NCBI GenBank assembly: GCA_937873425.1
Contig: CALMYE010000303.1
Span: forward strand, 50,928 to 114,927
Length of the DNA stretch: 64,000 bases
Source of the DNA: an uncultured Sphingopyxis sp.
GTDB lineage: Bacteria; Pseudomonadota; Alphaproteobacteria; Sphingomonadales; Sphingomonadaceae
Direction of reading: 5' to 3'
Within the stretch, counting starts at the first letter, position 1. Each line of letters starts with the position of its first letter. The translations under genes and the position numbers were made by a program. A model generated the notes under the pieces. It was not told the origin of the DNA. It saw only the letters and a program-made list of their open reading frames with translations, and did not search any database. Shown one piece after another: positions 1 to 48,033 of the stretch.

Positions 1-2
1 GC

Positions 3-1550
3 CTGTTCGATGATGTGCGCTTCAGTCTCGACGCTACCTTCGTGGATCGGGCCATGGACGGGAGCTACAACACGAATAACATCCTTAGCGTCTCCCATAC
101 GACCGATCGCTCGCTTTCGATCAGCCCGTCTCTGACCATCCCCGTCGATGACAACTGGTCGCTTTCGGTCGCGAGCACCTATGCGAGAAGTCGGAATCGG
201 CGCCAAACCGCGTCGTCATCGAACGGCACCGTATTCCTCCGCGAAGACTTTTGTTACTGCCATTCGCTCCACGCCGTTGAAGCCTATCTGGAAGGCTCAG
301 CGCTGTCGTTGCCCGCAGGGGATGTGCGGGCGGTGCTGGGCGCCGGCTACCGGAAAAATCGCTATCGCGTTCACGGGAGATCGTCGGCGAACGGAGATCA
401 ATTCGTCACAACTGGAGGGGATCAGAGCGATACCTACGCATTCGGCGAAATCCAGATCCCGGTCATTTCAGGGCTGAACGAAACGGCATTCGCAAAGGCA
501 CTGACGATCTCGGTAGCCGGCCGCTACGACCGGTACAATTATAGCGGTAGCGTCACAACGCCGAAGATCGGCCTGATTTACAGCCCAAATAATGCCGTCG
601 ACCTGAAATTCTCCTGGGGGCGTTCGTTCAAAGCTCCCACCCTCGCGTCCATTTATCAGACGCAATATGCGTACCTCCTTCCGCTGACATATTTTGGGAG
701 GAGCGACGCTGCACCAGATGAATCAGCCCTCTATCTTGATGGCGGTTCCACATCATTGCGGCCGGAGCGAGCCACAACCTGGACTGCGACGGTCGCCTTT
801 CACCCCAAGTCGTTGCCGGGGCTTAACGCGGACCTGTCCTACTTCCGGGTGAAATATATCGACCGTGTTCGCACTCCAATCGGGTTTTACCCCGAAGCAC
901 TCAGTCCGAATTATGCGAACTATGTCACACTGAATCCCAGCGAAGTGGCGCTCCAGGCAGCCATCAATGGCGCGTCCGGCGGCTTCCTCAATTATACCGC
1001 CGGGGCCTACGACCCGGCGTCGGTCCTGTACCTCATCGACAACAGAAATATGAATGTCGCGGCGCAAAAAATCGAGGGCGTGGATGTCAATTTGTCCTAT
1101 CGCCTGGATCTGCACGACGGCGCGCTGGTCACAGCGTTGAATGGCAGTTGGCTTCGCAGCCGCCAGAAGAACGGATCAGCTTTCCCCTATTTTGACCTTG
1201 CCGGAACGATCTGGAACCCACCCCATTTTCGATCGCGCGCCAGTGTCGGTTGGGAAGGGAATTCCGCCGAAGCATTCGTCTATTTCAACTATATTGGAGG
1301 CGTCGAAGATCGTCGTGCGGCGCTCCCGATTGACGGGCGATCAATGTTTACCGTCGATCTTTCGCTCAGCTATCGAACGTCCACTTCCGGCGGCTTTCCG
1401 AACGGTTTCCGTATCGGTCTCAGCGTCGAGAATCTGTTCGACAAGCGGCCCCCCTATTTGGCGCCGGCACCCTTCACGGAACCCTATGACTCGACCAATT
1501 ATTCCCCAATGGGGCGCTTTGTCGCGTTGTCGCTATCGCAGTCTTTCTAA
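3..1550 (+). CDS. TonB-dependent outer-membrane receptor, C-terminal part (5' end outside window), lasso-cluster associated
   Basis: Frame open from window start; beta-barrel motifs (GRYDRY, WGRSFKAPTL, VENLFDKRPP); terminal Phe; stop overlaps isopeptidase ATG (TAATG). Confidence 0.92.
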   Translation: MFDDVRFSLDATFVDRAMDGSYNTNNILSVSHTTDRSLSISPSLTIPVDDNWSLSVASTYARSRNRRQTASSSNGTVFLREDFCYCHSLHAVEAYLEGSALSLPAGDVRAVLGAGYRKNRYRVHGRSSANGDQFVTTGGDQSDTYAFGEIQIPVISGLNETAFAKALTISVAGRYDRYNYSGSVTTPKIGLIYSPNNAVDLKFSWGRSFKAPTLASIYQTQYAYLLPLTYFGRSDAAPDESALYLDGGSTSLRPERATTWTATVAFHPKSLPGLNADLSYFRVKYIDRVRTPIGFYPEALSPNYANYVTLNPSEVALQAAINGASGGFLNYTAGAYDPASVLYLIDNRNMNVAAQKIEGVDVNLSYRLDLHDGALVTALNGSWLRSRQKNGSAFPYFDLAGTIWNPPHFRSRASVGWEGNSAEAFVYFNYIGGVEDRRAALPIDGRSMFTVDLSLSYRTSTSGGFPNGFRIGLSVENLFDKRPPYLAPAPFTEPYDSTNYSPMGRFVALSLSQSF

Positions 1551-3676
1551 TGGCCCTCGTCATGGAATGCATCGCGCGGCGATCGGCGAACCGCGCGTTC
1601 ACGTTAATTTTCCTTACTACCGCAGCGCTGCCGGGTGCGGCTTTCTCACAAGCTGCGCCGCTGCCACCGACGGCGCCCGCTCTGCAAGTTGTGGCTACGA
1701 ATGCGACCGGCGTCGACTTGCAATCAGCGAGGGACACAAGCCCGTCATGTCCGACGATAGTTCCTCCGGTCGCATCGCAATCGATAGCACGAAGTGTGGA
1801 GGCGGATGATATCATTCGCCTCCGCGATTTCGGAAAGATGGATGCGTCTGAGGCAGACCCGGGCGGCTTTGCTGTGTCGCCCGACGGAAGATATCTGGCA
1901 ATCCAGCTTCGACAGGCGGACCCCGTCTCCAACAGCTACTGCCAAGCCCTGCTGATTTATGATCTCGGCAATGTTCGAACTGCGCCGCGCATTGTCGACA
2001 TGGGCGGCGACTACGTGCGCCGGACGATTACGCTCTACGGTCTCGAGGGCTTCCCCACCGGCACTCCGGAACCTTTGACGCCGAAATGGTCAAAAGATGG
2101 CAAGTGGCTGGCCTTCCTGAAACGAGAAGAAGGAATCACGCGACTTTTCGTGACCGCGCTGTCCGAAGGTGGCACGAGAAGTATCTCTGACGGGCGTTTC
2201 GACGTCGCCGACTTCGCCTGGTCAGATGACGCATCGCAGTTGCGCTATCGACAACGGGAAAATCACGCCGCTGCCATAGAACGACTGCAAACCGAGGGGC
2301 GAAGCGGTTTCCAATTCGACGAGCGATTTTGGCCGCTTGCCGAGCTCACGCCATATCCACGCGAGACACCTGCGGAAGTCGAACGTTTTGTCATGATCGG
2401 AGAGGCCGATACGTTCGGTGGGTCCGGCAGTGCATCACAGCAGGATAGAATGGCGGAGGAGGCAGGCCGCGCTCCGACGCGCAAAGGCGCCGCTGTTGCG
2501 ATCATCGACCATCGACAACTCGCGGCGAGGGTCGGCGACAAAAATATAGTTTGCCAATTTAAGGAATGCGCCCGCGTCGCAGCGGCATGGACGGTTCCGG
2601 GAGCCGACGAAATTGTCTTCATGCGCCGAGAAGGGTTCGCCGCAGCGCGAACCGGCATTTATCGATGGGCTCTGGGTGAGAACAAGCTGACGAATATCCT
2701 CACAACAGACGACGCGATCCGCGGATGTGATTTTCAACTCCTTTTGGTTTGCGCCCGAGAAGCTTCTCTTCAACCCCGCGACATCGTTGAAATCGATCTG
2801 AGGTCGGGAAAAATCCATCAACTTATCGAGCTCAACCCCGAATGGATCGCGCGCAGGCTCGGAACAGTGACCCGCCTGCGTTGGACCAACAAATATGGAA
2901 TCGAAACGTTTGGCGATCTCGTGCTTCCACCGGACGCTCGGCACGATGAGCGTTTGCCACTTGTTGTCGTGCAGTACAGCAGTCGCGGCTTTCTCAGAGG
3001 CGGAACTGGCGACGAATATCCGATTCAGGCTATCGCGGCGAAAGGCTTTGCCGTCCTGAGTTTTGACCGTCCGCTCGACTACCGGACCGCGATGTCTCGC
3101 GCCGGCCGATCGGTATCCCGACGGCACATCGCGAACGCGTGGACCGATCGTGCGAGCGTTCACGATTCTCTTATGCGCGGAATCAAGCTGGCGGCTGACA
3201 CGCACCCGATCGATGCCGACCATATCGCGATCACGGGACTCAGCGATGGCGCGTCCACCGCGACATATGCGCTAATCCATGCCGATATATTCTCGCTGGC
3301 GCTCATTAGCTCATGCTGTGAAGACCCGAGCATTTTGGAGACCGGTGTTGGGGAAGCCTATGCGAGCATTTTGCGCACGAATGAATATCCACTGCCTTGG
3401 GAACAGCACAAATCGAGTTGGAAGCGCGTCAGTCTCGCGATGAACGCAAGCCGCGTGTGCGCGAAGATTATAATTCAGAGCGCGGATCGGGAAGCGCGCC
3501 TGGCCACTGCCTCCCTTCGGGCGCTGCGGCAATTCGGCCGTGATGTGACAATGTTCATTTTCCCCGATGAGTATCATGTGAAATGGCAGCCGGTTCATCG
3601 TCAGGCCGTTTTCAGACGAACGCTCATGGAACTCGACGACTGGCGGCGATTGCCTAAGGCGCGGTGTTCAAGGTGA
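1550..3676 (+). CDS. Lasso peptide isopeptidase (AtxE2-like S9 serine hydrolase)
   Basis: Signal peptide, TolB-like propeller (SPDGRYLA, WSKDGKWLAF), nucleophile GLSDG, C-terminal FPDEYH; adjacent to lasso B/C genes. Confidence 0.9.
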   Translation: MALVMECIARRSANRAFTLIFLTTAALPGAAFSQAAPLPPTAPALQVVATNATGVDLQSARDTSPSCPTIVPPVASQSIARSVEADDIIRLRDFGKMDASEADPGGFAVSPDGRYLAIQLRQADPVSNSYCQALLIYDLGNVRTAPRIVDMGGDYVRRTITLYGLEGFPTGTPEPLTPKWSKDGKWLAFLKREEGITRLFVTALSEGGTRSISDGRFDVADFAWSDDASQLRYRQRENHAAAIERLQTEGRSGFQFDERFWPLAELTPYPRETPAEVERFVMIGEADTFGGSGSASQQDRMAEEAGRAPTRKGAAVAIIDHRQLAARVGDKNIVCQFKECARVAAAWTVPGADEIVFMRREGFAAARTGIYRWALGENKLTNILTTDDAIRGCDFQLLLVCAREASLQPRDIVEIDLRSGKIHQLIELNPEWIARRLGTVTRLRWTNKYGIETFGDLVLPPDARHDERLPLVVVQYSSRGFLRGGTGDEYPIQAIAAKGFAVLSFDRPLDYRTAMSRAGRSVSRRHIANAWTDRASVHDSLMRGIKLAADTHPIDADHIAITGLSDGASTATYALIHADIFSLALISSCCEDPSILETGVGEAYASILRTNEYPLPWEQHKSSWKRVSLAMNASRVCAKIIIQSADREARLATASLRALRQFGRDVTMFIFPDEYHVKWQPVHRQAVFRRTLMELDDWRRLPKARCSR

Positions 3677-5432
3677 CTTGCGGCGATGCTCTGCACCAAG
3701 CCTCGACGTCGCACAGGCGGAGAATTCGTCCCATATCATTCACGCCAAATGTCAGGTCGTCCTTCAGCTGCTGTTCGATCATGCTGCGATCAAGAATACC
3801 CGCGCCGCTGAGTAGTCCGTCCATCAGCATTTCGCGAATGAGAACTCGTCGCTCGCGCAGCATCTGCAATTGAAACTGGCCGAGGCCTCCTTTTGAGATC
3901 CGCCATGCGACTTTGGCGGGAAGATCCCGCTCCATGGCTCGGCGGGCTATGTAACGACTTCGCCCCCGGCCGACCCAAAGCCAAGTCGGTATGCGTAGGC
4001 AAGTCTCGACAAGGGGCTGCGACAATAGGGGAAATATCCCCTTCATCAAATCGGAGCGCCGATAACCATTCATGTTATAGCAGCTGTTGTATAGTCCATG
4101 AACATGTTCAACCTTTCCGGGAAGCGGTCGGTTTTTTGGCGGAGGCCACGGCAGCCCAGGTGGCGATTCATTGGATGGAAGATCTTTGGAAAGAAATGCA
4201 TCATTCGCGCGCCAGTTGGCGTGGTGCTTGCCTTTCCATCCCTTCCTGATCGCCTTCCAGCCGAGATCCCACGCGTTGCACTGATTTGCACGCGCCACCT
4301 CAAAGACGGTTCGTGCAAAATTTGGACTCGGACCTTTCGCTCGAAGGGTGTCCGCCGCGGGTCCGGAACTCTGCAGATGGCAGAATACGGCGTCGCCGCC
4401 CTGACCGTTGACAAATGTGTCGATCGACCGGTCCGTTGCCATTTCGAGGGAGATGCGATCGGTTTCTTGAACAAAGGACCGCGAGTGGGGTCGGGGCAAG
4501 TGCGGCCGCGCCGAATGAAGAAGATCTGGTCTTCGATGATCAGGCGCACCCTCGTCCAGGGAGATATGTAAGTGGCTGGCTACGCTTCTTGCAAAATTCC
4601 TCTCGTCCCCATCGTTTCCTTCGCTGAACATCGTGATCGCGTGAATTTCACGCCCAGCAGTGGCGGACCCCGCCGCGATTATCGACGAATCCAAGCCCCC
4701 TGAAAGATCGAGGGCGTAAAACCGTCCGCGCGGCATCTGCGCTCCGATGCAGCGAAGAATTTCCCGGCGAACAAGTTCCATGGCTTCATCTGGATCGGTG
4801 ATCAGGACGTCGGGATTGGTGAACTTCCAAGGGTCCCAGTGAAAACTGGCCTCAAGCGCCCGTGGGGCTTCAAACTTGATCGATTCTCCACACCTGATCT
4901 CGGAAACTCCGGAGAGGCATGTGGATGACATGCTGAGATTATCCCAAATCAGATGTCTGGCGACTGATTCCCAGTTTATCGACGGCGGGCGCCTTGCCAT
5001 TTCCAGCAATAGCCTTGTGTCCGAGGCAACAACGAGGACTCCGCCCTCGACTATGTAATAGGCATTGATGCTACAGAATGGGGATCGTTCGCAGGTGATC
5101 ACGCCGTTGGGCAAACTGGCCAGGACGATATAGGAACCCCAATATTCATTGTTCAAATGGCCGCCTCGATACGCCGCCGTGACACGCGCCCCTTCGTCGA
5201 TGTTCTTTCCAAATGCGCGCGACGGGACATGCCGGCAGAAGACGTCGCCAACGACGACGCCAGTGCCATCGGTGAGGTGGTTGATTTCCAACCCGCTGTC
5301 GGAATAGACAACAAGGCGTTCGTCACGATGGGTCACGCTCAGCCCCGACTGATGAGCTATTTCATCCAAATGTAGGTCGAGGGCGCATGGGACCTGGGTC
5401 GGCGAGCTGACGGCTAAGAATCTGCCGATCAT
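3654..5432 (-). CDS. Lasso peptide cyclase (asparagine synthetase-like C protein)
   Basis: DLSGGLDSS PP-loop and GQGGDAVF motifs; ATGA overlap with B gene. Confidence 0.93.
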   Translation of the reverse strand: MIGRFLAVSSPTQVPCALDLHLDEIAHQSGLSVTHRDERLVVYSDSGLEINHLTDGTGVVVGDVFCRHVPSRAFGKNIDEGARVTAAYRGGHLNNEYWGSYIVLASLPNGVITCERSPFCSINAYYIVEGGVLVVASDTRLLLEMARRPPSINWESVARHLIWDNLSMSSTCLSGVSEIRCGESIKFEAPRALEASFHWDPWKFTNPDVLITDPDEAMELVRREILRCIGAQMPRGRFYALDLSGGLDSSIIAAGSATAGREIHAITMFSEGNDGDERNFARSVASHLHISLDEGAPDHRRPDLLHSARPHLPRPHSRSFVQETDRISLEMATDRSIDTFVNGQGGDAVFCHLQSSGPAADTLRAKGPSPNFARTVFEVARANQCNAWDLGWKAIRKGWKGKHHANWRANDAFLSKDLPSNESPPGLPWPPPKNRPLPGKVEHVHGLYNSCYNMNGYRRSDLMKGIFPLLSQPLVETCLRIPTWLWVGRGRSRYIARRAMERDLPAKVAWRISKGGLGQFQLQMLRERRVLIREMLMDGLLSGAGILDRSMIEQQLKDDLTFGVNDMGRILRLCDVEAWCRASPQVTLNTAP

Positions 5433-6076
5433 CGCACTGCTCTGATAGGTTCGAAGGGGCCGACCATTTCGATCGTATCGTTGAGGATGAGGTCATCATC
5501 CTGAAGCCAGCAATGGGCTTCGAATGGATGAAGCCGAACACCGAAAACCAGTGTGCTCTCATACCCGTTTTGGGCCAAAAGATGCTGAAGGCCGATTGAA
5601 CGGAGCAGGCAGCGATCCCTCCTGATCGCAAACCGTTCTACATATTCGAATGCTGATATCAGACCGCTGCGGTTTGACGCCGGAGGGCCTTCTGTCTGGG
5701 CGATCATGTTATTGCGTTGCACCCACCACAGCAATTCATCGAATCCGCGCAGTGCAATGGTGAATCGTGCGCTGGCGAGAGATCTGAATGCCGATGCAAT
5801 TTGCCGGCCGGATGGCGAACGCATATCGAATTCCGCGGAATGTTCACGAGCTGGGCGAGTAATTGCGCAGCAGGAACTACGGGCTCCTTCCGCATTGGAG
5901 TTCAACCAGTGGCGATCCTCAATCAGGCGCCGAAGGCTCGGTTGCAGTGAATCAACGTCTCCTCTTCCGAGGGCAGACGCAGCCTCCTTTTCCAAGCGTG
6001 AATATCGATTTGCGAGGACATCCAGAAAGACGACCTGACCATCGATTTCGCAGCTCGAAACCCACGAAGGAAGCAT
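5429..6076 (-). CDS. Lasso peptide B protein (fused RRE + transglutaminase-like leader peptidase)
   Basis: N-terminal VFLDVLANRY RRE-like segment; C-terminal CLLRS...FEAHCWLQDDDLILND catalytic motif. Start moved to ATG 6076 because the upstream in-frame codons form a terminator. Confidence 0.9.
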   Translation of the reverse strand: MLPSWVSSCEIDGQVVFLDVLANRYSRLEKEAASALGRGDVDSLQPSLRRLIEDRHWLNSNAEGARSSCCAITRPAREHSAEFDMRSPSGRQIASAFRSLASARFTIALRGFDELLWWVQRNNMIAQTEGPPASNRSGLISAFEYVERFAIRRDRCLLRSIGLQHLLAQNGYESTLVFGVRLHPFEAHCWLQDDDLILNDTIEMVGPFEPIRAVR

Positions 6077-6093
6077 GAGTGACGCCTTAGCGG

Positions 6094-6130
6094 AAAAAGC
6101 CGGCCGGGAATTTATCCATTCCCGGCCGGC
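6094..6130 (-). terminator. Intrinsic terminator/attenuator between lasso precursor and B gene
   Basis: Perfect 13-bp stem GCCGGCCGGGAAT/ATTCCCGGCCGGC, 6-nt loop, followed by T5 on the minus strand. Confidence 0.85.
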
Positions 6131-6136
6131 CATTGA

Positions 6137-6274
6137 TCAGTCGACGACGATGCCGAGCGGCTGGCGCGGCTGCACACCGTCCGGCGCGATGTTTTCGTTC
6201 GACCCGTGGGTCTCTTCGGTGACGGTGCCGAGGTCGATCAGTTCAGCGTCGCGATAGTTCGGTTCCTTGTCCAT
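6137..6274 (-). CDS. Lasso peptide precursor A (45 aa): MDKEPNYRDAELIDLGTVTEETH-GSNENIAPDGVQPRQPLGIVVD
   Basis: Hand-translated; RBS AAGGAG; leader motif LIDLGxVxxET with Thr at -2; core begins Gly, Asp at position 9; directly upstream of B. Confidence 0.93.
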   Translation of the reverse strand: MDKEPNYRDAELIDLGTVTEETHGSNENIAPDGVQPRQPLGIVVD

Positions 6275-6329
6275 GATAGTCTCCTTTCCCGCCGCACAAA
6301 TGCGACACCGAAAGAATCCCAGTTTCAGA

Positions 6330-6372
6330 GGATATATCCAAACATATATGTTCTGAATCTGAAGCTATATAT
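6330..6372. promoter_or_regulatory. Candidate operator array upstream of the precursor
   Basis: Palindromes GGATATATCC (6330-6339) and AACATATATGTT (6341-6352) plus a third ATATAT (6367-6372). Confidence 0.5.
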
Positions 6373-6412
6373 GGAAGGGGCGAACCCCGGTATCGGCATT
6401 CTTGAGGCCGCC

Positions 6413-7015
6413 CTAGGTAAGTCCACTCATGATTTCAGGAAGATTACGGATACGGCGTCGATGATATGCGACTACCGATCGCCTGATTGACTGCCTGTTT
6501 CCGCGTTCAATCTTCCCGAGCAAAGCATCGAATTCGCGGCGCAAACCGCTCAATTTACGCTCTTCGGCGCGCCGGATCCGACGCATTCGATCGTTGAGAT
6601 TCCGGACCAAATGCATGAAAAAGACGTTCTGGGTCACCTGGGAGATCGAGTCGAAGAGTAGTTCAATCGGCGGCGGCGCGCCGAGCTCGTCCTGTTGATT
6701 AAAGTCATGGGAAACAAGGAGACTGCTCCGGCACGAGGCGGCTGTGAGCATTACATATTGGCTCAGAATATAGAGGTGGCGAGCCGCATTCTCGTCGAGC
6801 GACGGTATTTCAAATCCGCCAGTTACCGGCATGTCGAGTAAAGCTTCGCCGACGAGCCGCAACATCGCCTCGCGGACCGGAGTCGCGCTCATTCCATATC
6901 GATCAGCTAGTTGTCCGATATTGATTCGCCCAGACGCGATACGACCTTCAATGAGATCGAGTTTAAGGCTGGTGTAGGCTCTTTGGCTAAGCCCGTGATC
7001 TGCGCTCATCTTCAT
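6413..7015 (-). CDS. GntR-family transcriptional regulator
   Basis: wHTH LADRYGMSATPVREAMLRLVGEALL with FCD-like helical C-terminus. Confidence 0.85.
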   Translation of the reverse strand: MKMSADHGLSQRAYTSLKLDLIEGRIASGRINIGQLADRYGMSATPVREAMLRLVGEALLDMPVTGGFEIPSLDENAARHLYILSQYVMLTAASCRSSLLVSHDFNQQDELGAPPPIELLFDSISQVTQNVFFMHLVRNLNDRMRRIRRAEERKLSGLRREFDALLGKIERGNRQSIRRSVVAYHRRRIRNLPEIMSGLT

Positions 7016-7166
7016 ACACTCCGAGTTCGAGCGCCCGTGCGCCAGTCGCGGACATGACCGATGCTTAGTGGAGTCTCGGACTGAGCATTGTGGTCAATCC
7101 CGGCGTGGAATGGTCGCCACAGAGCCCCTCCACGGTTCGCGCGTCGGCGACGATGCGACGAATCAG

Positions 7167-7661
7167 TCAGGAACGCGGGGCGGGTGTGATCGTCTTCGCG
7201 CGCGAAGATGCGGCGCGATGTCGCTGATGAGTCCAAGCATATTCCTGGAGCCCGTCACGTGTCCTGCGGTGATGTCGCCGTGTCCCAATGGCGAGGATTG
7301 CGACCATTGGATAGGCGATCTTACCTACGATCCACCAATAGGCGACGGGCAAGATCTCGGGATTGTATGCCGTGACGCCGTGTGCCGCGACCGCAACCAA
7401 CTGAAAGGCTGCCAGCCAGATCGGCCAGAATCTGTCTGCCGCCCCGGCGATTGCCGAAAGCGCCAGCAGGAGCCCGAAATCGATAAGTAACATTTCCCAT
7501 TCGACGTCGCGATAGGATGGATTGCTTAGTCCGGCCCAAAAAGTTCCCATCGTGGCGATGACCATGCAGATCGACGCAGTCCTTTCCGGGGCTCCGCCTC
7601 GCCACTGCGCATAGGCAGAGACGAGGAAGAGCAGGATCATGAATGCCACAATGACGATCAC
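7167..7661 (-). CDS. Hypothetical polytopic membrane protein
   Basis: About 4-5 hydrophobic segments; motifs WRGGAPER and ADRFWPIWLAAFQ; GTG start with RBS. Confidence 0.7.
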   Translation of the reverse strand: MIVIVAFMILLFLVSAYAQWRGGAPERTASICMVIATMGTFWAGLSNPSYRDVEWEMLLIDFGLLLALSAIAGAADRFWPIWLAAFQLVAVAAHGVTAYNPEILPVAYWWIVGKIAYPMVAILAIGTRRHHRRTRDGLQEYAWTHQRHRAASSRAKTITPAPRS

Positions 7662-7679
7662 GAGCAGCGGCCCCCTTGG

Positions 7680-8005
7680 TCAGGCGGCCAATTCAAGGGG
7701 CGTCGCGCCGCGCGCGCTTGGGCGCTTGACGACATCCCCGAAAGCTTCAGGATCAATGCCCAGCTTTTGTGCCAGCACTTCAAGCTGTCGATGACCTTCG
7801 GCCATGTAACCGAGCGCTCCGGTAACCGAGAGCTGCGCGTTGGTCAGGGCCGACAATATCTGATGTCCGACCAGCGGCGAAAGATTTTGGTGCGTCTGCG
7901 CGTCGATTGCCGCAGTGGCGAGCCGCCCGCCTTCCGCGAAAATCTGCTGCAGCAGTTTTTCGTAGCCGAACAGCGATTCGGTCAGATGCTTGATGCGCTC
8001 TTCAT
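7680..8005 (-). CDS. Small helical hypothetical protein, start uncertain (possible 1-nt frameshift after ATG 8005)
   Basis: Amphipathic helical frame ERIKHLTESLFGYEKLL...LAQKLGIDPEAFG; the RBS-preceded ATG at 8005 is one base out of frame. Confidence 0.55.
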
Positions 8006-8016
8006 CGTCGGACCTT

Positions 8017-8520
8017 CTATCCGAGAAGCCGGGAGAGGACGTCGAGTCCGACGGCGAGCATGCCGAAGCCGACTGCAAGCGCGATCGCAAGGAAGACGAG
8101 CCAGAAGTAACGGAGGTACGGGTCGAGGTCATTTGCAGATACTCCCATGGTTCGTAGAGGAAGCAACCTGACCCAGGAGGTGGGCGGTGGTTCCGCCTTC
8201 TCCGGTGGCTCATCGGCCTGGCCGGTGCCTACCCCCGTATTCTCCAACTGCATTTTGCGGGGGGTCATCGCGGCGTCTTCGAAGGCGTGGAAAAGTTCCG
8301 CTGCGTGCCGGCGATTGCGGGCGCGCAAAATGGCGACAGCCTCGCTGATGTAAGTGTCGACGGTGCCGACGCCCAGACCCAATTCGAGGGCGATTTCCTT
8401 GGAGGTCTTGAGCCGATAGACATGGCGGAGGCACTCGCGTTGGCGCGGGGCCAAGCGTTCGCAGAGAGCGATGCTCGGCTCTTTTACATCACTAGCAGAC
8501 AAGTGCGCGCTGCTTGCCAT
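8017..8520 (-). CDS. LuxR-type HTH regulator with C-terminal transmembrane helix
   Basis: LAPRQRECLRHV...SKEIALELGLGVGTVDTYISEAVAILRARNR HTH; hydrophobic tail YFWLVFLAIALAVGFGMLAVGL. Confidence 0.8.
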   Translation of the reverse strand: MASSAHLSASDVKEPSIALCERLAPRQRECLRHVYRLKTSKEIALELGLGVGTVDTYISEAVAILRARNRRHAAELFHAFEDAAMTPRKMQLENTGVGTGQADEPPEKAEPPPTSWVRLLPLRTMGVSANDLDPYLRYFWLVFLAIALAVGFGMLAVGLDVLSRLLG

Positions 8521-9107
8521 CAATGGACGGCAAGTCCCTTACGCTATCTAAAACAGCACCTCTTTTTCTCGACCCGAGCATTGCTTTCCGACGGATTCTG
8601 CAAGCGGCTCCCCGTGCATTCCGTCAACAGAGCCGGTTCCCGACTCTCTCTGAATTTCAACTTAACACGGGAGTAGGCGGACCGGAATTTTCAGGCAACC
8701 CTTGGCAACGATTTGCTTTTCTTCACCGAGTATCTCGTATGGGTGCTCTGCGATAAGGTCCGGTTAGTGAAAATCATGGCTGCGGATACGGAGGATTTCA
8801 TCTTGTTCGGGGGTCGTCCGAACGGCCGTGACGCCGATGTGCGCCCGCGCGGCGCCCATGTCGGATCGCGCGGATCGGGGCCGCCGCCATTCTTCGCCCC
8901 GTCACCGCGGCCCGGCGCGACCGTGAAATCCATCCGTGCGATCGACCGCAGCATTTCGTCGTGATCATTGATGCGGTCGCAGATGATATGCATCGCCGGC
9001 GGCAGGCGGTCGGCGGATTGCCGCTCGTGCTGCCGCGCAGGGACAGTCCGCGCCGATGAGGCAGCCCTCCGATGCGGTTACCTCGCATCCGAATCCTGCG
9101 CCGGAAA

Positions 9108-9390
9108 CTAGAACGGATAATTGATCCCGCGACCATAGTCGTGATCAAAGGTCGGCTTGCTATCGGCGCCATAGCGCGGCGCCTGTTCGAGAACCTTCTT
9201 GTCGAGATCGACGACATAGCCGCCCTGTTCGGTGTCGTAAGTCAGGACGTCCCAGGGCAGCGGATAATAGTCGCTGCCAAGACCGAATAGACCGCCGAAC
9301 TGGAGGACCGCATATTCGACGCGACCTTAGCGCTTGGTGACCATGAAATTGTAGATCGGTCCGAGCTTCTCGCGGTCGCGGTCGCGGTCG
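9108..9390 (-). pseudogene. PRC-barrel domain protein remnant
   Basis: Frame EKLGPIYNFMVTKR*GRVEYAVLQFGGLFGLGSDYYPLPWDVLTYDTEQGGYVVD with in-frame TAA at 9327-9329 and no intact 5' end. Confidence 0.75.
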
Positions 9391-9606
9391 AGTCCCGCCT
9401 GGCGCTTCGCAATCGCCCAGCGCCTCTGCTTGCGCCGAGTTTCCTTAGGCTCCCCAGTCGACCACGCGAGCGATAGCGAACTCGGCATCGTCACGGGCTC
9501 TGCGTCGATGAAGTCAAAGCGGCCCTTTGCCGTGCTCTCACAGTTTCGGCCGATGAGATGGAGTCGTCTCGGCTGAAGGGACGCCGGCTCTGGCGCCGAC
9601 GAGGCG

Positions 9607-10035
9607 CTAGATATCAGGCTCGGTTCCTGTGATCAGCCTCAGGCATTCCCGAACCGTGATAATCCGCGCCCCGCCGTGGCGCCCGAGACTCAACAAGTCG
9701 GCCTTATCGCCGGTGATCAAAAGTTCGGCCATCCCGGCCTCAATCGTCGCCAGAAGATAGTTGTCCCAGGGATCCGGGCTGACGGACACGTCGGGCAGAT
9801 TCTCTATAACAATGGCGCTGCCCTTGAGTTCATTGACGAGTCTGCCGACAACGGCTGGATTCAAGCGAGCCCGCAGTTTGGGATAGCGCGTACCGCGCCG
9901 AATTTCCTCTAGCTGTTCAGCAGAGGTGATTAAGGTGATCTTGCCTTGGCACCACAAGGCAATCAGGTGAAAGGGAAGCGACCGCCCGTGCAAAAGGGCG
10001 CTGACAAGCACATTGGTGTCGATGACAACGCGCAT
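9607..10035 (-). CDS. PIN-domain putative toxin
   Basis: MRVVIDTNVLVSALL, DPWDNYLL, ITGDKADLL PIN motifs. Confidence 0.88.
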   Translation of the reverse strand: MRVVIDTNVLVSALLHGRSLPFHLIALWCQGKITLITSAEQLEEIRRGTRYPKLRARLNPAVVGRLVNELKGSAIVIENLPDVSVSPDPWDNYLLATIEAGMAELLITGDKADLLSLGRHGGARIITVRECLRLITGTEPDI

Positions 10036-10038
10036 TGA

Positions 10039-10278
10039 TCAGTTCCGACGCGCATCCGCAATCGCTTCATCGATCAACTGGCTCATCTCTTCCGGCGAGA
10101 CGTCATCGAAACCGGCGCGGGCCTCGGCGAGCGTAAGATCGAGCAGGCGCCATTTCACGGACTCTTCAATGAAGCGCGATAGGTCGCCCTTTTTCATTCC
10201 GCGCTGAGCTAGGTATGTGCGGACATCAATGTCGGTTTCGGGCGCGACATTGACGGTCCAGCGCGTCGCACCACCCAT
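10039..10278 (-). CDS. Ribbon-helix-helix putative antitoxin
   Basis: RWTVNV strand followed by DLSRFIEESV helices; directly upstream of the PIN gene. Confidence 0.75.
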   Translation of the reverse strand: MGGATRWTVNVAPETDIDVRTYLAQRGMKKGDLSRFIEESVKWRLLDLTLAEARAGFDDVSPEEMSQLIDEAIADARRN

Positions 10279-10503
10279 AATCAAAAACTCCTCATGGACG
10301 CCTATGCGGATAAGCGCTGACCATCTTTTACGCCAAGATTCGATTCCGACATATGCGCTGGATCGACTTTACCACAGGGGGGCTCGATTTTAGCCTACCC
10401 GATTTTCGAGCCTCTGCACGGAACACAATAGATCGCAGCATCCACCTCGGCGCCGGACGTTCCGGCTCTCCACGTCAAACTGACGCGAGGCGCAAACGGA
10501 CGC

Positions 10504-10902
10504 ATGGCGACGCGGATCGAACAAGATGATCCACCGTTCGATGTCGAAGCTCGACGACTTGGCCTTTGCCGTGAACTACTTGTCGAACGGCAGATCATTG
10601 CGCGGTACCTCAAGAAGCAAGACTGGAGCCATGCGGGCTGGATCATGCTACTGGAACTCTATGTCGCGGATACGGTCGGTAAAGGGCTGCCGGTTTCAAG
10701 CCTAGGATATGCGAGTGGCGTTTCGGTTCCGACGGCGACGCGGCAGACAACTGAGATGGAATCGCGGAAACTTGTGGCTCGCGAGCGCGATCCTCACGAC
10801 GGGCGCCGAACGAACATCGCCCTGACCGCTCGCGGTCGAGCGACCCTGCGGTGCATTCTAGACGACTATGCGAAGTCCCGGGCGAATGTGCCGCTCCGAT
10901 AG
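10504..10902 (+). CDS. MarR-like winged-helix regulator
   Basis: WIMLLELY...VSSLGYASGVSVPTATR...RERDPHDGRRTNIALT. Confidence 0.8.
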   Translation: MATRIEQDDPPFDVEARRLGLCRELLVERQIIARYLKKQDWSHAGWIMLLELYVADTVGKGLPVSSLGYASGVSVPTATRQTTEMESRKLVARERDPHDGRRTNIALTARGRATLRCILDDYAKSRANVPLR

Positions 10903-48029: not shown

Positions 48030-48033
48030 TAGG

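Follow-up and report, generated by a model that had tools for sequence, protein, structure and literature searches.

Does a 45-codon open reading frame (ORF), lying between a GntR-family regulator gene and two putative lasso peptide biosynthesis genes in a Sphingopyxis genome, encode a lasso peptide, and if so, of which kind? The frame, here called gene A, is on the minus strand of a 64,000-nucleotide stretch from an uncultured Sphingopyxis sp. (assembly GCA_937873425.1, contig CALMYE010000303.1, positions 50,928 to 114,927), which we refer to as the window and in whose own numbering positions are given unless a contig is named. An initial annotation had proposed that it is an unannotated lasso precursor with a core free of aromatic residues. 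On the basis of sequence comparisons, we read gene A, at a probability of roughly 0.84, as the precursor of a class II lasso peptide that is still uncharacterised and belongs to the benenodin/subterisin/sphingonodin family, set in a complete isopeptidase-type locus.

Translation of the minus strand gives exactly the proposed 45-residue product, MDKEPNYRDAELIDLGTVTEETHGSNENIAPDGVQPRQPLGIVVD, with the same division into leader and core. The product scores 31.2 bits with the Pfam family PF24178 (Lasso peptide subterisin) and thus passes its gathering score of 27; PF24178 and the NCBIfam family NF033522 (benenodin family lasso peptide) model the same precursor type, of which, judging by its scores, the gene A product is a peripheral member. 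We also compared gene A with the copy on Logan contig L028, where the B protein is 66%, the C protein 69% and the isopeptidase 64% identical to those of the window. Across the 22 core codons the two copies differ by 8 synonymous and 0 non-synonymous changes, and across the 23 leader codons by 5.5 synonymous and 11.5 non-synonymous ones. Because of this pattern in the core, together with the Pfam score, the ORF is not a chance frame; by the measure of these codon differences it is translated, and its mature part is more constrained than its own enzymes. As proposed, gene A lies directly upstream of B and C on the same strand, the identity of both being confirmed by profile matches, and the ORF list holds no second precursor gene between gntR and B.

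Family membership also shows at the level of motifs. Among 22 precursors drawn from protein collections, a one-genome-per-species collection and the window's own genome (alignment A4), every sequence has L-9 and G-8 (within an IDLG block), Thr-2 and Gly+1, nearly every one has I-11, D-10 and core Gly18, and Asp stands at core position 8 or 9. The gene A leader, MDKEPNYRDAELIDLGTVTEETH, carries Tyr-17, Leu-12, Gly-8 and Thr-2 of the RRE-binding motif that Tietz et al. 2017 reportedly defined as Tyr-17, Pro-14, Leu-12, Gly-8 and Thr-2, with Ala in place of Pro-14. The precursor thus combines Thr-2 and the RRE-binding motif in its leader with Gly1, an acceptor within core positions 7-9 and adjacent B and C genes, and the reading as a lasso precursor that had been based on Thr-2, Gly1 and Asp9 is supported at the sequence level, as one of class II. 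Since Asp9 is the sole acidic residue at positions 7-9 of the core, GSNENIAPDGVQPRQPLGIVVD, a nine-residue Gly1-Asp9 ring is the only sensible closure. Glu4, considered as an alternative acceptor, was rejected: it would close too small a ring, and relatives have Asp or Gly in its place. The cleavage site, ring residue, threading and plug residues are predictions from sequence throughout; the expected mature mass, computed as the 22-residue core minus 18 Da, is 2256.150 Da.

The core contains no Phe, Tyr or Trp, a property to which the initial annotation gave more weight than it can bear. Eight of the 19 distinct cores in the alignment are aromatic-free, and such a core is not unusual in its family; the characterised lasso peptides sphingonodin II (GMGSGSTDQNGQPKNLIGG) and caulonodin I (GDVLNAPEPGIGREPTGLSRD) are of the same sort (PMC12427821, its Table 1). 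Steric locks are bulky aromatics in most lasso peptides, and benenodin-1 is held between Glu14 and Gln15 (PMC13352647). Among lasso peptides of solved structure, 17 and 14 of the 20 amino acids have been seen at the plug positions (PMC12214591). The four plug candidates named earlier, Gln12, Arg14, Gln15 and Leu17, are reasonable, and the choice can be narrowed to Arg14, which is kept in all eight of the aromatic-free cores and is the likeliest steric lock, with Gln15 across the ring. The core shares Gln12-Pro13 and a basic residue at 14 with sphingonodin II, and our best guess is that the ring is seated at Arg14/Gln15. Because sphingonodin II, itself aromatic-free, and syanodin I are listed as not heat-stable (PMC7549694, its Table 1), a nine-residue ring with Arg or Gln locks may be thermolabile or switch-like.

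The surroundings of gene A are those of a complete textbook isopeptidase-type lasso locus (Table 1). The convergent isopeptidase gene product scores 673 bits with NF033523 (Atxe2 family lasso peptide isopeptidase; cut-off 400) and can be aligned with AtxE2 from end to end (5TXC; E = 4.8e-105). In its GLSDGA motif, Ser falls in the column where the 5TXE chain has Ala, which we take to be the S527A mutation and so to mark the catalytic Ser; Asp in QSAD and His in EYHVKW are conserved, and the Ser/Asp/His triad is, on this alignment, intact. By eye, the hydrophobic N-terminus of the isopeptidase (...AFTLIFLTTAALPGAAFSQA...) resembles a signal peptide. The stop codon of the TonB-dependent transducer gene overlaps the isopeptidase start by 1 nt, and genes for an extracytoplasmic function (ECF) sigma factor and its FecR anti-sigma partner complete this operon. 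A GntR gene precedes A, and no ABC exporter is found among the called genes within 8 kb either side of the locus. Such an architecture is described as "almost constant" among isopeptidase lasso clusters, for which the position of the GntR gene is typical (PMC9266682).

The two biosynthetic enzymes fit this picture. B matches Transglut_core3 at 64 bits and the equivalog-domain model NF033537 (lasso_biosyn_B2) at 78 bits against a cut-off of 33; in an alignment of 8 B sequences (A2), Cys156 (in DRCL) and His188 (in AHCW) are invariant, a LN[DE] motif is present, and Cys156/His188/Asp200 form the candidate catalytic triad. An AlphaFold2 (AF2) model of B (pLDDT 84.5, pTM 0.83) begins with three strands plus helices. 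The best specific Foldseek matches are the lasso RRE protein TbiB1 with its leader (5V1U; probability 0.99, 82/84 residues, target TM 0.50, E = 0.028) and the transglutaminase-like putative Cys protease 3ISR. Judged from the model, B is likely to be a fused B1-B2 protein. C matches PF00733 (Asn_synthase) at 83.5 bits, carries the LSGGLDSS ATP-pyrophosphatase (ATP-binding) motif and gives sub-threshold matches to the lasso/macrolactam cyclase models NF033561 and NF033535. Sequence searches of the PDB returned only noise with B and nothing useful with C.

The conserved start of B is the ATG at 6076 (MLPSWVSSCEIDG...), common to the related loci L030, L028 and L019. An alternative start at ATG 6133 (234 aa, 5429..6133) was rejected: it lies inside the intergenic hairpin, 3 nt past the A stop, and is unconserved in relatives. 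The lower part of the bounds first given to the locus, 5429-6133, rests on this long B call and has to be drawn in accordingly. Public gene calls differ even on identical DNA, as seen when positions 8451-10621 of CP013342.1 (L004) are compared with window positions 3654-6133: B is called at 234, 215 or 131 aa and C at 592 or 571 aa, and the isopeptidase likewise at 708 or 626 aa.

The terminator that had been suggested between A and B is real as a structure. Its 14-bp stem, followed by UUUUU, has a folding energy of -39.2 kcal/mol (z = -3.8), and 0/200 shuffled sequences fold as well; a simple terminator scan did not flag it. Hairpins of 12-16 GC-rich base pairs, unrelated in sequence, stand directly 3' of the precursor stop in all nine of the relatives and paralogs compared, which makes the hairpin a feature of the family. 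It probably acts as a partial terminator or as a 3'-end stabiliser that raises the A transcript over those of B and C.

Table 1. Features of the lasso peptide locus and its neighbourhood (window positions, except where a contig of the window's assembly, G000, is named).
Feature	Position	Strand	Remarks
TonB-dependent transducer, 3' part	1..1550	+	Whole protein 856 aa; STN, Plug and barrel
Lasso peptide isopeptidase, AtxE2 family	1550..3676	+	708 aa; converges on C with a 23-nt overlap
C protein	3654..5432	-	592 aa; Asn-synthetase-like lasso cyclase
B protein	5429..6076	-	215 aa; probable N-terminal leader-binding (RRE-like) domain and transglutaminase-like Cys protease
A-B intergenic hairpin	6094..6131	-	Perfect 14-bp GC-rich stem (6131-6098), 6-nt loop, UUUUU
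Lasso precursor gene A	6137..6274	-	45 aa, leader and core
Gene A stop codon	6139-6137	-	
Gene A core codons	6205-6140	-	22 codons, GSNENIAPDGVQPRQPLGIVVD
Gene A leader codons	6274-6206	-	23 codons, MDKEPNYRDAELIDLGTVTEETH
Shine-Dalgarno AAGGAG	6281..6286	-	6 nt 5' of the gene A ATG; kept in relatives (alignment A3)
Small stem-loop GTCGCA-TTTG-TGCGGC	6291-6306	-	Just 5' of the Shine-Dalgarno sequence
Three AT-rich 10-bp palindromes (CCATATATAG, ACATATATGT, GGATATATCC)	6330..6374	-	gntR-A spacer
GntR-family regulator	6413..7015	-	Directly upstream of A; PF00392, 35.9 bits
164-aa membrane protein	7167-7661	-	In a cassette with the LuxR/GerE protein
177-aa ORF	7680-8213	-	In a cassette with the LuxR/GerE protein
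Membrane-anchored LuxR/GerE helix-turn-helix protein	8017-8523	-	
ECF sigma factor and FecR	G000:C303:48116-49814		Before the window start; same operon as transducer and isopeptidase

Taken together, these parts suggest the following course of events. Control sites near gntR would drive transcription of A-B-C, the GC hairpin after A probably stopping or stabilising most transcripts, which would leave A in excess over B and C. Through Tyr-17, Leu-12, Gly-8 and Thr-2 the leader would be bound by a predicted RRE-like domain at the N-terminus of B, whose Cys-His-Asp protease would cut between His-1 and Gly1; C would then adenylate the side chain of Asp9 and, with the tail already folded into place, link it to the amine of Gly1. 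The predicted product (2256.15 Da) is a 22-residue peptide whose tail, after a short loop, threads its nine-residue ring; Arg14 would most likely serve as steric lock and Gln15 would sit on the other side of the ring, at the positions of Glu14 and Gln15 in benenodin-1. Once exported, by a route for which the locus offers no ABC exporter, the peptide would be sensed and re-imported through the joint action of the TonB-dependent transducer, FecR and the ECF sigma factor, and finally be linearised by its cognate AtxE2-type isopeptidase.

Several points weigh against the assignment of gene A as a family precursor in a working isopeptidase-type locus, or against parts of the course just outlined. 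The cycle of export, re-import and cleavage is a hypothesis of the literature that we carry over to this locus. With NF033522, the gene A product reaches 28.1 bits, below the cut-off of 33. A nine-residue ring on an aromatic-free core may thread weakly, for which the heat-labile sphingonodin II and syanodin I provide a parallel (PMC7549694). Pfam, searched at E = 10, returns no PqqD/RRE domain on B residues 1-109, and the Foldseek E-values for B are all weak, the best being 0.02. Lastly, a clear U-run follows the hairpin in the window lineage only, and true termination is thus uncertain.

How well do other explanations account for the same observations? The 45-codon frame could be a chance ORF or a decayed remnant from which no peptide is produced, an idea suggested by its shortness and by the sub-threshold NF033522 score. 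Such a frame would hardly be preceded by a strong Shine-Dalgarno sequence, pass a Pfam gathering score and keep company with intact B, C and isopeptidase genes, and it is effectively refuted by the eight synonymous and zero non-synonymous core differences and by motif columns that are invariant across 22 relatives. A more substantial question is whether the peptide, although cyclised, might be branched-cyclic (unthreaded) or only transiently threaded in the cell for want of Phe, Tyr or Trp. The lack of any aromatic residue in the core, the prevalence of bulky aromatic locks among lasso peptides (PMC13352647) and the heat lability of syanodin I and of the aromatic-free relative sphingonodin II (PMC7549694, its Table 1) would all fit. 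Yet lability at 95 °C does not imply an unthreaded state at growth temperature, and the locus retains the intact catalytic triad of a cognate isopeptidase, an enzyme class that acts on threaded cognate lassos only (PMC9266682). Purifying selection is, moreover, as strict on loop and tail as on the rest of the core, and Arg14 is kept in every aromatic-free core sampled from the family. We therefore regard an unthreaded product as very improbable.

The function proposed for the peptide has a competitor as well, in that it could be a narrow-spectrum, bacteriocin-like antimicrobial that the producer neither re-imports nor degrades. Antimicrobial activity is found in many lasso peptides and is narrow in spectrum for astexin-1, the product of an isopeptidase cluster (PMC9266682), and the locus lies on a mobile element, as bacteriocin loci often do. 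Astexin-1 is, however, the exception, the other known peptides of isopeptidase clusters being without antimicrobial activity (PMC9266682); the producer encodes both a receptor and a degrading enzyme, and neither an ABC exporter nor an immunity gene occurs in or beside the locus. An antimicrobial role is accordingly quite improbable in our view, and we continue to read gene A as the precursor of a threaded lasso peptide that its own isopeptidase would cleave.

Is this peptide new? The core string does not occur in any of 8.4 million full texts, a sequence search of PDB chains returned nothing useful, and the literature that names lasso peptides together with Sphingopyxis does not describe it. 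The earlier view that the core is not a described peptide agrees with all of this: as far as these searches show, the peptide is uncharacterised and new as a compound. The gene product, in contrast, is not new. "Unannotated" was true of the gene track used by the initial annotation and of that track alone, as public collections (NCBI nr, IMG, ENA, Logan) have a called gene for exactly this 45-aa product on 198 contigs, including CP013342.1 and CP039250.1, which we take to be Sphingopyxis terrae NBRC 15098 and Sphingopyxis sp. PAMC25046, respectively. Within the genus its distribution is narrow: the exact core occurs in 3 of 111 Sphingopyxis species representatives, and a core of 68% identity in a fourth.

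In the window's assembly (337 contigs, 4.34 Mb), four isopeptidase genes exceed the cut-off and there are three PF24178 precursors. The other two precursors, with cores GPGLVDNDNIGGKLPFAGLSDD and GGLLPYPEDGSVIHFKPDGAITAD, each have their own GntR, B and C, and the three further AtxE2-family isopeptidase genes are found at G000:C278:38953-56072 and G000:C139:83755-91280, two of them about 9 kb apart on C278. Given these three extra isopeptidases and two extra precursors, the strain encodes about four isopeptidase-type lasso systems.

The locus resides in a larger mobile unit. A TrwC relaxase lies on one side of it, and traG and further tra genes lie on the other. A collinear block of at least 57 kb, reaching from at least 8.9 kb before the window start (G000:C303:42000-50927) to about position 48,030 of the window, is 99.96-100% identical at the DNA level among the window's assembly, CP013342.1 (G017) and CP039250.1 (G032), whereas the rpoB regions of these three genomes are only 90.8-92.7% identical. 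Since conjugation genes flank the locus and the identity of the block is far above that of rpoB, recent conjugative transfer is indicated, and on this comparison the lasso locus belongs, as cargo or as a component, to a conjugative element that was transferred recently. At about 48.0 kb of the window, where an insertion sequence (IS) element sits, collinearity stops. A 320-aa protein with HEPN and Pol-beta nucleotidyltransferase domains is encoded at G000:C303:47011-47973, between the relaxase side and the ECF sigma gene.

One may ask whether the module for making, re-importing and cleaving the peptide is a working part of the element and not passive cargo, with, for example, the secreted peptide being sensed by element-bearing cells through the TonB transducer, FecR and the ECF sigma factor. 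This would explain why the core has stayed 100% identical while the enzymes drifted to 64-69%, and also why three species with a 7-9% difference in rpoB share a block of at least 57 kb at about 100% identity. We nevertheless hold it to be unlikely.

Upstream of gene A, the palindromes in the gntR-A spacer are kept in the loci L030, L029 and L019 and in that of S. bauzanensis (L020), although the proteins are only about 50-60% identical (A3). The stem-loop next to the Shine-Dalgarno sequence is likewise kept across relatives at this level of protein identity, with both sides of its stem altered in S. bauzanensis (GCTGC...GCAGC) and in L019 (CTGCCGCA...TGCGGCAG). Palindromes and stem-loop are candidates for a GntR operator, a promoter or an element of the 5' untranslated region; a sigma-70 promoter scan of positions 3400-7300 found no site. 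Further upstream, the cassette at 7167-8523 keeps its synteny with gntR-A-B-C in the loci L030 and L019 and also in S. bauzanensis, which has a different core, sphingocin; the cassette may functionally be part of lasso loci of this type, which are without a known exporter.

What the locus adds is one more predicted, uncharacterised core for the isopeptidase-type family. Its family, architecture, hairpin and non-aromatic locks are all precedented and would not surprise a lasso peptide specialist; the only mildly unusual points are that its core is so strictly conserved and that it lies on a mobile element. Purifying selection on the core is unusually strict relative to the locus's own enzymes, which points to a sequence-specific partner, and the recently transferred conjugative element offers a genetic handle on function. 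With its predicted nine-residue ring, no aromatic lock and a conserved Arg14, the peptide would provide a clean test of the smallest plug that a ring of this size tolerates, and it is possibly a second switch-like rotaxane of the benenodin kind.

Among known systems, subterisin (Sphingomonas subterranea; Kuroha et al. 2017) gives its name to PF24178, the family whose gathering score the gene A product passes. Its cluster, too, belongs to a sphingomonad and lacks an ABC exporter, and subterisin itself was detected in the supernatant of cultures (PMC11006600); its core sequence is taken to differ from ours. Benenodin-1 (Asticcacaulis benevestitus; Zong et al. 2017; PDB 5TJ1/6B5W) names the NCBIfam family that the gene A product nearly reaches. 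It also comes from an isopeptidase-type cluster, and its non-aromatic locks, Glu14 and Gln15, occupy the positions of Arg14 and Gln15 in the window peptide, but it has an 8-residue ring closed on Asp8, a Phe within that ring and thermally driven shuttling. The nine-residue Gly1-Asp9 ring predicted here is instead that of astexin-2 and astexin-3 (Asticcacaulis excentricus; AtxE2 PDB 5TXC/5TXE). Their isopeptidase shows full-length homology to ours and has an identical Ser/Asp/His triad, and their A-B-C and isopeptidase genes show the same convergent layout. Unlike the window peptide, the astexins are locked by aromatic pairs (for example Tyr15/Trp16 in astexin-3), and their precursors are unrelated to the gene A product beyond the general motif.

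Sphingonodin II (Sphingobium japonicum UT26; Hegemann et al. 2013; see Table 1 of PMC12427821 for its sequence) belongs to the same precursor family and the same sphingomonad isopeptidase locus type. Its core is aromatic-free and begins with Gly1, as does ours, and shares Gln12-Pro13 followed by a basic residue at 14 in the same register, a Gly near position 18 and an acidic C-terminus. The two differ in that the ring of sphingonodin II closes on Asp8 to give eight residues, in contrast to the predicted nine closed on Asp9, and in that Lys14 stands in place of Arg14; apart from this, ring and tail show no relation in sequence. Sphingonodin II exists as a produced and tested peptide, reported to be heat-labile (PMC7549694), whereas the window peptide is a prediction from its gene.

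The closest published precursor, at 51% identity, is SpgA of sphingocin (Sphingomonas sp. BPH; identical in Sphingopyxis bauzanensis, L020; PMC11006600). Both precursors have 45 residues, divided into a leader of 23 (in SpgA, MNKELDHRDDELIDLGSVTEETK) and a core of 22, and both loci have GntR-A-B-C facing an isopeptidase and a TonB receptor, the same AT-rich boxes before A and, upstream, a cassette of LuxR, small-protein and membrane-protein genes. The SpgA core, GPGFINNDGVGGKLPFAGLSDD, has two Phe residues and Asp8, however, and the B and C proteins of its locus are only about 28-33% identical to those of the window. In that system, a transposon insertion in the sphingocin B gene abolished phenanthrene use (PMC11006600).

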